DNA from: Escherichia phage PhiR70_1
Sequence record: PV340577
Reading direction: 5' to 3' (one strand)
Length of the DNA stretch: 48,757 nucleotides
Below, in pieces: positions 7,684-8,481 of the stretch (position 1 is its first letter; each line of letters starts with the position of its first letter). The notes beneath the pieces were generated by a model. The model ran no database searches and was not told the DNA's origin. It saw nothing but the letters and a program-made list of their open reading frames with translations. Both the position numbers and the translations under genes were made by a program.

Positions 7684-7911
7684 ATGACAAATCAAACCAT
7701 TCAACTCGCAATCAGTATTACAGGTAGTCAAAAACGACTGGCAGATCTATGCGGTGTAGCCCAACCCACAGTTTGGCGTTGGCTACACGGTGGCGGAATT
7801 GATGCCCGCTATGTAATGAAAATTGTCTCAGCCACTGGTGGAAAGATTAAACCAGCAGATATTCGTCCCGACCTCGCACCATTGTTTAACGCGAGTAATT
7901 CTGCCGCCTAA
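7684..7911 (+). CDS. cro: Cro-like HTH regulator
   Basis: 76 aa, divergent from the repressor; HTH QKRLADLCGVAQPTVWRW; AGGA Shine-Dalgarno 8 nt upstream. Confidence 0.75.
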   Translation: MTNQTIQLAISITGSQKRLADLCGVAQPTVWRWLHGGGIDARYVMKIVSATGGKIKPADIRPDLAPLFNASNSAA

Positions 7912-7935
7912 ACTGCGGCGTTAACTGATAAGGCA

Positions 7936-8481
7936 ATGACTATGCAACCACTTACATACCAACAGACTAGCGGATTTAGCCCGACTGCGGTGATAAATCG
8001 TTCTCAAACAAAACAGGCGCCAGGCCACGAAAAAATCCGTGATGCCGTTCGCGCCTGGTCGGCTGCAGATAATCAGGATGTTGTTGCCGCACTCATTGTG
8101 AATGAGTATCGGGAGCAGGGCGGCGGCACCATCGATTTCCCTGATGATGTCAGCCGTGCACGCCAGAAGCTGTTCCGCTTCCTCGATAACAAATTCGATT
8201 CTGAAAAATACCGAAATAACGTGCGTGAACTGACCCCGGCAATTCTGGCGGTACTACCGCTGGAATATCGCGGCCACCTGGTTGAGCAGGATAGCTACAT
8301 GGCTCGGCTGGCTGAAATGGAAAAGGAACTCAGTGAGGCAAAACAGGCTGTCATTCTCAACGCACCACGCCACCAGAAACTGAAGGAGATGAGTGAAGGC
8401 ATTGTGTCGATGTTTCGTGTGGACCCGGATTTGGCTGGTCCACTGATGGCGATGGTCACCACCATGCTGGGGGCAATATGA
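7936..8481 (+). CDS. YdaT-like regulatory protein at the cII position
   Basis: 181 aa; VAALIVNEYREQGGG and LTPAILAVLPLEYRGHL parallel Rac YdaT motifs as recalled. Confidence 0.5.
   Translation: MTMQPLTYQQTSGFSPTAVINRSQTKQAPGHEKIRDAVRAWSAADNQDVVAALIVNEYREQGGGTIDFPDDVSRARQKLFRFLDNKFDSEKYRNNVRELTPAILAVLPLEYRGHLVEQDSYMARLAEMEKELSEAKQAVILNAPRHQKLKEMSEGIVSMFRVDPDLAGPLMAMVTTMLGAI

Follow-up and report, generated by a model that had tools for sequence, protein, structure and literature searches.

What is encoded at the cII position of a lambda-like phage that has no lambda cII, and where on the DNA does the encoded protein act? The question is raised by the immunity region of Escherichia phage PhiR70_1 (sequence record PV340577), in which a Cro-type repressor of the YdaS family is followed by a protein of the YdaT family, here called cII. 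The window refers to the whole stretch of DNA that was analysed (48,757 nucleotides, nt). The ydaS and ydaT genes were first flagged as a toxin-antitoxin (TA) pair by a prediction program, and their over-expression can be toxic (PMC5700373, PMC5700377). YdaS and YdaT were described by Jobling as analogues of Cro and cII, as argued from genetic context (PMC5917428). For the YdaT protein of CP-933P, Jurenas et al. showed activation of a promoter directed leftward to the repressor operon and a lack of toxicity, and noted its homology to phi80 cII (PMC8630535). The comparisons given here indicate that cII of the window is most likely a lysis-lysogeny regulator and not a member of a TA pair, and that it probably activates a leftward pRE-like promoter from a box in its own gene to establish repression. 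The function is established for relatives of cII and is proposed for the window protein by analogy with them. The new element is the site and promoter model suggested for YdaT-family cII analogues, which is based on comparison only. The features on which the argument depends are given below.

6881-7573, minus strand: cI-type repressor, 230 amino acids (aa) from the ATG at 7573 (MKKETL...), with a helix-turn-helix (HTH) and an S24 autopeptidase domain.
7684-7911, plus strand: Cro-type repressor, 75 aa from ATG, YdaS/COG4197 family.
7942-8481, plus strand: phi80-type cII (YdaT family), 179 aa; an alternative upstream ATG is found at 7936.
7964-7969, minus strand: predicted -10 hexamer TAGTCT, read from 7969 to 7964, 20 nt leftward of the box; predicted start near 7957, box centre at -41.5.
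7990-8007, no strand: predicted cII/YdaT box GTGATA-AATCGT-TCTCAA, 18 bp, cII codons 17-22; minus strand TTGAGA-ACGATT-TATCAC.

The initial annotation had described a Cro gene followed by a YdaT-like protein in place of lambda cII. Both open reading frames (ORFs) are on the plus strand as described, and both products match their Pfam families far above the cut-offs. Cro matches PF15943 (YdaS_toxin; 54.6 bits, E=9.6e-15, curated cut-off 30). The YdaT domain anticipated for cII is found in a profile search: PF06254 (YdaT_toxin), 102 bits for a curated cut-off of 21, E=2.4e-29, residues 69-156. In PHROGs, Cro belongs to phrog_35 ('transcriptional repressor') and cII to phrog_163 ('CII-like transcriptional activator', E=7e-67, residues 19-181). 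The gene order is that of a cII gene: cI is divergent, and cro, cII, O and P follow each other, with cII directly after cro and before the replication genes. No BLASTP alignment to lambda cII, no tblastn match of lambda cII in the window and no Pfam CII match were found. The protein thus does not appear to belong to the lambda CII family, and the replacement of lambda cII by a YdaT-like protein is borne out. The lambda-cII repeats TTGC-N6-TTGC have a single copy in the early region, at the lambda-type pI (1354-1367), and none at the cro-cII junction.

The length of 181 aa proposed initially corresponds to an existing ORF (7936-8481, plus strand, from the upstream ATG) and is amended for the protein. 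A conserved N-terminus, MQ(T/S/P)L, is found in 18/18 non-redundant homologues and coincides with the second ATG (window: MQPLTYQQ...). Because the starts of the homologues match ATG 7942, and because AAGG (7930-7933) is located 8 nt before it, the start is probably 7942 and the protein 179 aa long.

The sequence relatives of cII with a solved structure (phmmer) are 8bt1 (E=1.9e-4), the YdaT of CP-933P, and 3c4r. An AlphaFold (AF2) model was built from 24 homologues (mean predicted local distance difference test score, pLDDT, 74.8). In a Foldseek comparison with the PDB, 3c4r and 8bt1 are the top and sole convincing matches (probability 1.0; target-normalised template-modelling score 0.65-0.68). 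In the model, residues 1-27 are predicted to be disordered and the HTH domain covers about residues 29-113: helices 29-43 and 45-58, loop 59-69, recognition helix 70-82. A long helix (119-138) and two extra conserved C-terminal helices (143-178) are also predicted. The recognition helix carries R79, which is nearly invariant within the subfamily and aligns with R57, the DNA-contacting Arg of Rac YdaT (PMC11879457). As modelled, cII has the features of the family domain: an all-alpha, POU-like HTH, a long loop between alpha2 and alpha3, and the conserved Arg on the recognition helix. The long helix 119-138 may be the counterpart of alpha6, which in the family builds the antiparallel four-helix bundle of the tetramer. 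It also has the marks of the phi80 subfamily: the N-terminal MQxLxxQQ...MINRxQ extension and the C-terminal HQKLKE...LMAMVTTMLG helices. Compared with the Rac and CP-933P proteins (~140 aa), phi80-type proteins have 27 additional N-terminal residues and two additional, highly conserved C-terminal helices.

The sites of two YdaT proteins are known. In its crystal structure, CP-933P YdaT is a tetramer with a POU-like HTH; its target at the ydaS/ydaT junction is TTGATT-N6-AATCAA (PMC9986795). The sites bound there by the CP-933P and Rac proteins have the form TTGATT/ATGATT-N6-AATCAA, and both proteins activate leftward transcription of the repressor gene (PMC8630535, PMC9986795, PMC11879457). The Rac site, ATGATTCATGAAAATCAA, covers the start codon of ydaT itself, and racR expression is stimulated up to 29-fold (PMC11879457). 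The canonical TTGATT-N6-AATCAA was not found at the cro-cII junction, either of the window (at most 3 mismatches) or of the phi80-type loci (at most 2 mismatches).

A related element was found inside the gene. The minus strands of 18 non-redundant phi80-type loci, in which no indels occur within the first 18 codons, were aligned. The box core TGATW-N8-TCA is located exactly at +49 from the start codon in 16/18 loci. The minus-strand boxes are TTGAGC-GCGGTT-TATCAT in phi80, TTGATT-GCGATT-TATCAT in mEp237 and CTGATT-TCGCTT-TATCAG in Klebsiella phage phi5.1. The conservation of third codon positions is the highest of the gene at the box codons (0.83, mean 0.62), codons 1-10 coming next. The rare Ile codon ATA is retained there in almost all loci, and a third-position T ahead of CA(A/G/C/T) is retained while the residue varies (Ser, Ala, Asn, Cys, Tyr, Phe). 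Since third positions are kept while residues change, selection at the box seems to act on the DNA and not on the protein. With a leave-one-out position weight matrix (PWM) derived from the other loci, 7990-8007 scores 20.5 bits (shuffled-window maximum: 17.2) and is the sole site of the window above background. The relaxed motif TGATW-N8-TCA is over-represented in the whole window: 12 sites, 3.9 +/- 2.1 being expected, a number reached in 0/100 shuffles. Five of these sites are within 4880-8006. Among the 11 sites that were checked, TAnnnT at the required leftward spacing is found only for 7990-8007.

The predicted -10 hexamer varies among the 18 loci (TACTCT, TATTGT, TATTTT, TATCAT, TAATCT, TACCTT, TAACCT). 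Its positions T1, A2 and T6 are 100% conserved, though the overlapping codons 9-10 encode varying residues. When all YdaT-family loci tabulated are considered, TAnnnT is found in 19/19: the offset is 20 in 16 of them and 21 in the remaining 3. At any other leftward offset between 0 and 59, TAnnnT is found in 0-1 loci, and on the rightward side in essentially none. The spacing of 20/21 nt was checked on loci outside those used to find it:

Rac K-12: TATGAT, gap 20 nt.
Rac-SA53: TAGCCT, gap 20 nt.
Tritos (CP-933P type): TAGTTT, gap 21 nt.
Citrobacter phage Chris1: TATTAT, gap 20 nt.
Aeromonas phage pAEv1818: TAACAT, gap 20 nt.
Klebsiella Kp4882-1: TATCAT, gap 21 nt.
Actinobacillus pPE4: TATGCT, gap 21 nt.

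The -35 position of the predicted promoter is CACCGC, a poor match, which is expected because the promoter would be activator-dependent. A box centred at -41.5 is in the classical position of a class-II activator. Three other candidate elements were considered and rejected, their hexamers being unconserved or having no partner at a workable spacing: a -10 candidate TAAATC (7978-7973, 11 nt from the box, found by eye), the conserved AAGTG (7947-7951, resembling the lambda 'TGTAAGT'), and -35-like TTGGTA/TTGAAA at the QQ codons.

The proposed mechanism is as follows. Transcription from pR after infection would yield Cro and cII. cII would bind the imperfect inverted repeat 7990-8007 within its own codons 17-22 and, centred at -41.5, would recruit RNA polymerase to an otherwise weak leftward promoter (-10 TAGTCT, start ~7957). 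The leftward transcript would cross the ribosome-binding site of cII, and then cro, in antisense orientation before entering cI (6881-7573), and repression would be set up as by lambda pRE. Because the target promoter would lie inside it, the cII gene can be seen as a self-contained, portable establishment cassette; a gene that carries its own target would account for the free recombination of cII behind unrelated cro/cI modules.

A wider statement is put forward with appreciably less confidence, being favoured on balance only. YdaT-family cII analogues in general (types of the window phage, phi80, Rac and CP-933P) would be class-II activators, the box being at -41.5/-42.5 of an adjoining leftward promoter. 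In the phi80 type, the whole promoter would lie within the first 22 codons, under the disordered N-terminus, so that cII and pRE form one portable cassette. If this is true, the published promoter placements (in Rac, at a distance of ~190 bp; in CP-933P, upstream of the box) would be revised, and the lambda-type pI of the window, with its lambda-cII repeats, would be uncoupled from its own cII. The model makes a precise prediction for the action of a YdaT-type cII: box at -41.5, start near 7957.

Several points weigh against this proposal. The box of the window is a weak palindrome (4/6 positions complementary). The conservation among phi80-type loci is partly confounded by coding constraint and shared ancestry. 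In a PWM scan with shuffled background, no further cII box was found near int or Q, and analogues of pI and paQ were not found; cII may thus control one promoter only, unlike lambda cII. In the literature searched, no experiment on the window cII, nor on binding or pRE of phi80 cII, was found; the 1988 phi80 papers, which may have mapped pRE, were outside this search. Promoters have also been placed elsewhere in relatives: in CP-933P, the box is said to be on the downstream side of PRE933P (PMC9986795), and the Rac promoter PracR4 is placed ~190 bp from the YdaT box, a natural distance that the Rac reporter is described as preserving (PMC11879457). This reporter presumably held the proximal TATGAT too, so the PracR4 data may not exclude a class-II model. 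The K-12 Rac locus itself has this near-consensus -10, TATGAT, 20 nt leftward of the footprinted YdaT box. A comparison of the loci suggests that a proximal class-II promoter in Rac could account for the activation attributed to PracR4.

The rival explanation that survives best, which is nevertheless unlikely, is that the box is an autoregulatory operator. The YdaT-like protein would block or loop transcription from pR, thereby limiting Cro, cII, O and P, with no promoter activation. The location of the box within the transcribed cII gene would suit such a role. YdaT tetramers have two DNA-binding faces (PMC9986795), and racR expression is reduced when Rac YdaT occupies the DNA between racR and ydaS (PMC11879457). 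A second site, perhaps involved in looping, could be the following:

7678-7695, no strand: near-canonical YdaT-box palindrome TTGATA-ATGACA-AATCAA, exactly over the cro start codon; 1 mismatch to TTGATT-N6-AATCAA.

This palindrome is located 312 bp from the intragenic box. It is missing in ST104 and phi8.2, which have the same cro type and other cII types; it has no counterpart in the other phi80-type loci, a lack of conservation that counts against the operator, and its score in the PWM scan is within background. A pure roadblock also leaves unexplained why 19/19 loci have a -10-like hexamer at a constant spacing of 20/21 nt and solely on the leftward strand, and the YdaT proteins of Rac and CP-933P do activate leftward reporters (PMC8630535, PMC11879457). 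The palindrome is a possible auxiliary site of uncertain status. As a part of the mechanism it was set aside: it is statistically unusual, yet unsupported by phi80-type conservation or PWM, and is left unexplained. Its position recalls the footprint of Rac YdaT over the ydaS start (PMC11879457).

Less probable still is a reading in which box and hexamer are conserved as a side effect of coding constraint, or of recent shared ancestry at a recombination boundary, and in which cII acts at other sites. The element is indeed within coding sequence, the phi80-type loci share ancestry, and the MQxLxxQQ peptide and the AMINRSQ motif are partly conserved as protein. Against this, the conserved nucleotides are on third codon positions where residues change, and the N-terminus is predicted to be disordered. 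Loci of the Rac and CP-933P types and those of Klebsiella and Actinobacillus have the same spacing as well; in these loci, the start codon is overlapped by the box, and the hexamer precedes the ydaT/cII gene.

The weakest reading, that Cro and YdaT are a TA or toxin-like cassette causing growth arrest of the host, has on its side the Pfam names (YdaS_toxin, YdaT_toxin) and the growth arrest reported for derepressed or over-expressed Rac ydaS/ydaT (PMC5700373, PMC5700377, PMC11879457), and is nonetheless scarcely credible and already largely refuted, since the cro and cII types are not co-inherited, the predicted fold is a DNA-binding one, the gene is at the cII position in phages whose records are complete genomes and name an E. 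coli host, CP-933P YdaT is not toxic and the TA reading has been explicitly rejected (PMC8630535, PMC5917428), and over-expressed lambda cII is toxic as well (PMC5917428). The initial annotation had mentioned both toxin-like and lysis-lysogeny roles: the regulatory one is retained, and the toxin is unsupported in the literature (PMC5917428, PMC8630535, PMC9986795, PMC11879457). A toxin neutralised by direct binding of its partner is argued against by published work on CP-933P and Rac (PMC8630535, PMC5917428).

The relatives of the two genes differ in origin. The closest characterised relative of cII is phi80 cII (66.7% identity over 99% of the length). Identity is 66% with the cII of mEp237, 52-53% with those of HK225 and HK639, and 37% with the YdaT of Rac-SA53, over ~90 residues only (about half of the length). 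With the genes annotated 'cII' in 4A7, D2, 1W, 3W and Perceval, the identity of cII is 99.4%, and with its counterparts in several PhiR phages it is 96-98%. The nearest relative of Cro is ST104 Cro (69% identity); identity with K-12 Rac YdaS is 32%, the similarity to the phi80 cro analogue is marginal (E=0.001), and no alignment was obtained with the cro analogue of Rac-SA53. The label 'Rac-type' given initially thus holds at family level, phi80 being the closer relative of cII. The ST104 record describes the ST104 cI and Cro as HK022-like, and by its similarities the window Cro is of the HK022/ST104 immunity type.

The initial description of Cro and YdaT as a pair does not hold, each type occurring elsewhere with other partners. 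The same cI/cro type is followed in ST104 by a P22-c1-type activator and in phi8.2 by a gene annotated 'CII family protein'; in other loci, the phi80-type cII is found behind differing cro genes and differently annotated repressors. Because each type pairs with other partners elsewhere, Cro and YdaT are independently exchangeable and do not constitute a cassette.

The 1.8-kb cI-cro-cII-O DNA has matches in 2228/5426 complete E. coli genomes, with a coverage of at least 80% in 717. In the matching genomes, the cII gene is named 'toxin YdaT domain-containing protein' by the Prokaryotic Genome Annotation Pipeline (PGAP). A protein search with cII gave 892 homologues; the named ones among the matches listed are from Enterobacteriaceae (Citrobacter, Klebsiella, Enterobacter, Kosakonia, Leclercia). 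Judged by these matches, the cro-cII stretch is an ordinary, very common and already known phage module.

Between and around cI, cro and cII, the following features are found:

7574-7683, no strand: divergent operator/promoter region (oR, pRM, pR), with the palindrome ATACGCTTGCGTAT at 7586-7599 and repeated TTGCTAT half-sites.
7624-7629 and 7647-7652, plus strand: pR as read by eye, -35 TTGCTT and -10 TATTAT; pR was not called by the promoter scan.
7903-7919, no strand: short G+C hairpin GCCGC ctaaact GCGGC spanning the cro stop codon, read from the sequence.

The cI-type repressor matches Pfam Peptidase_S24 (E=1.5e-18) and HTH_3 and is 86% identical to the CI-like repressor of Salmonella phage ST104. 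ST104 and Klebsiella phage phi8.2 have almost the same oR region. The hairpin is near the point where cro-type homology stops and phi80-type sequence starts; a similar hairpin (GCCGCC...GGCGGC) is found at the equivalent position in phi80, HK225, HK639 and CobraSix. No T-run follows the hairpin 7903-7919, and no terminator was called there by the scan.

The region as a whole had been taken initially for a non-lambda immunity module on a lambda backbone, and this view is upheld by a blastn comparison of the window with lambda 31000-40500. The block is described below with its genes other than those listed above.

4551-9030, no strand: non-lambda block, ~4.5 kb (Kil-like gene, pL, accessory genes, cI, cro, cII, O N-terminus/ori).
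4544-4834, minus strand: Kil-like protein, phrog_294 (E=1e-37); first ORF past pL, preceded by an untranslated leader of ~190 nt.
5056-5051 and 5033-5028, minus strand: pL as read by eye, -35 TTGATA and -10 TATTAT.
5239-6761, minus strand: proteins in the rexAB position, namely 136 aa, no family match; 203 aa, MqsA-like antitoxin (Pfam E=2e-17); 167 aa, weakly SecB-like (E=0.008, below cut-off).

No nucleotide alignment to lambda was obtained by blastn within 4551-9030, and no homologue of kil, cIII, ea10, ral, N, rexAB, cI, cro or cII was found there by tblastn. The flanks align with lambda: 2356-4550 at 97.4% (exo, bet, gam) and 9031-10412 at 93.7% (C-terminal half of O, P, ren). int-xis are 97.7% lambda, and the head and tail genes are lambda-like. 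On these alignments, a 4.5-kb block stands in for lambda kil through the O N-terminus in an otherwise lambda-like genome. The block is itself mosaic, with cI/cro of the ST104 type and cII of the phi80 type. The three co-oriented genes at 5239-6761 are located downstream of cI, where lambda has rexAB; their arrangement is reminiscent of a toxin-antitoxin-chaperone (TAC) system serving as an accessory module of a prophage. A search downstream of pL for an antitermination signal of the N or put type gave matches only to near-identical phages and to the ST104-type operator segment, and a Rfam scan of the whole window was empty.

Further downstream, the nin/moron region matches the set of the K-12 cryptic prophage DLP12, here inside an otherwise complete lambdoid genome:

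10508-17857: DLP12-type nin/moron order emrE, ybcK (serine recombinase), ybcL, ybcM, ybcN, ninE, ybcO, rusA, ylcG, Q, porin; the Q gene is at the position of DLP12 quuD and the porin gene at that of nmpC.

Within this region, a perfect TTGATT-TTGGGA-AATCAA, i.e. the published YdaT consensus, is located at 14531-14548, between ybcM and ybcN. Its chance expectation in 48.7 kb is ~0.003 (rough estimate), and its score in the phi80-type PWM is at background. It overlaps a rightward sigma-70-like promoter (TTGATT-17-CATAAT), which is followed by a strong hairpin. K-12 DLP12 has an identical palindrome (NC_000913.3, 572284-572301), on which the Rac YdaT paper (PMC11879457) is silent. The site could be a promoter repressed by cII/YdaT upstream of the Q operon, or could be due to chance. 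It was not retained as a part of the mechanism, being unsupported by phi80-type conservation or PWM, and is left unexplained.

Two features are found directly downstream of cII:

8568-9497, plus strand: replication initiator O; the probable real start is ATG 8568, past GGAGG.
8498-8593, minus strand: possible oop/M3-like antisense small RNA; promoter-like site TTGAAT-17-CATAAT with extended TG (8593 to 8565, from the promoter scan), stem-loop at 8498-8530.

The Pfam Phage_rep_O and PHROG matches of O start at ORF residue 31, and tblastn of lambda O matches 8568-9494 (67% identity). A start at 8568 leaves a cII-O spacer of 86 nt, a size as in phi80. The spacer aligns with those of mEp237 and PHB10; in phi80, the M3 RNA is annotated 'homolog of lambda oop' at the equivalent place, on the opposite strand. 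The stem-loop has an energy of -24.2 kcal/mol (z=-1.87) and a weak U-tract. No match was obtained in the Rfam scan, which thus gives no support to an oop-like RNA. The assignment of an oop/M3-like antisense RNA between cII and O is tentative.

The pI region (1290-1400) is identical to that of lambda from the T-run through the xis start. It contains the repeats TTGCGTGTAATTGC (1354-1367, minus strand), which we take to be the lambda cII recognition repeats. cII of the window most likely reads a different site. As the window has neither a lambda-type cII nor a YdaT-type box near int, its pI looks like an orphan site left by mosaic recombination. The presence of a lambda int-xis-pI module and of a non-lambda cII in one genome raises the question of how the production of Int is linked to the decision to lysogenise.

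The system proposed for the window can be compared with four known ones. With lambda cII/pRE it would share, by inference, the gene position, the role and the arrangement: an activator site over the -35 of a weak leftward promoter, at or within the 5' end of cII, giving a transcript antisense through cro into cI. Lambda also has an oop antisense RNA downstream of cII, as tentatively proposed here. Lambda cII and YdaT are functionally, not structurally, related (PMC9986795). The site of lambda cII is a direct repeat, TTGC-N6-TTGC, not an inverted repeat, and lambda cII has three target promoters (pRE, pI, paQ) and a partner, cIII. In contrast, the window has no cIII homologue (tblastn) and no second cII site (PWM); a lambda-type pI box is still present.

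CP-933P YdaT (8bt1) has the Pfam family and predicted fold of the window cII, with ~28% identity, and is a functional cII analogue. It differs by its size (141 aa): the 27-residue N-terminal extension and the ~40 residues of conserved C-terminal helices are lacking. In Tritos, a phage of the CP-933P type, the box overlaps the ydaT start codon, whereas that of the window is over codons 17-22, and TAGTTT is located 21 nt leftward. The CP-933P element differs as well: it is a cryptic prophage, it carries a TA pair, and its repressor, PaaR2, is not of the S24 type.

K-12 Rac has the same two families in the same order, a box (ATGATTCATGAAAATCAA) at the ydaT start, TATGAT 20 nt leftward, and a YdaT that activates racR. 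It differs by RacR, which is much shorter than the repressor of the window, and by the additional action of Rac YdaT on the host gene rcsA.

The closest system is that of phi80. The cro/cI modules differ, the cII-O spacer of the window is closer to those of mEp237 and PHB10, and the phi80 record has no annotated pRE. The phi80 cII (NC_021190 gp48; X13065 'cII gene') is like that of the window in its size and in its location, with a cro analogue before it and an O-like gene after it. The cII-O spacers have 85-86 nt, that of phi80 including the annotated oop-like RNA (M3), and the same geometry of box and -10 is found inside codons 8-22. For annotation purposes, and despite the toxin name given by PGAP, the gene is best read as encoding a cII-type lysogeny regulator of the phi80 kind.

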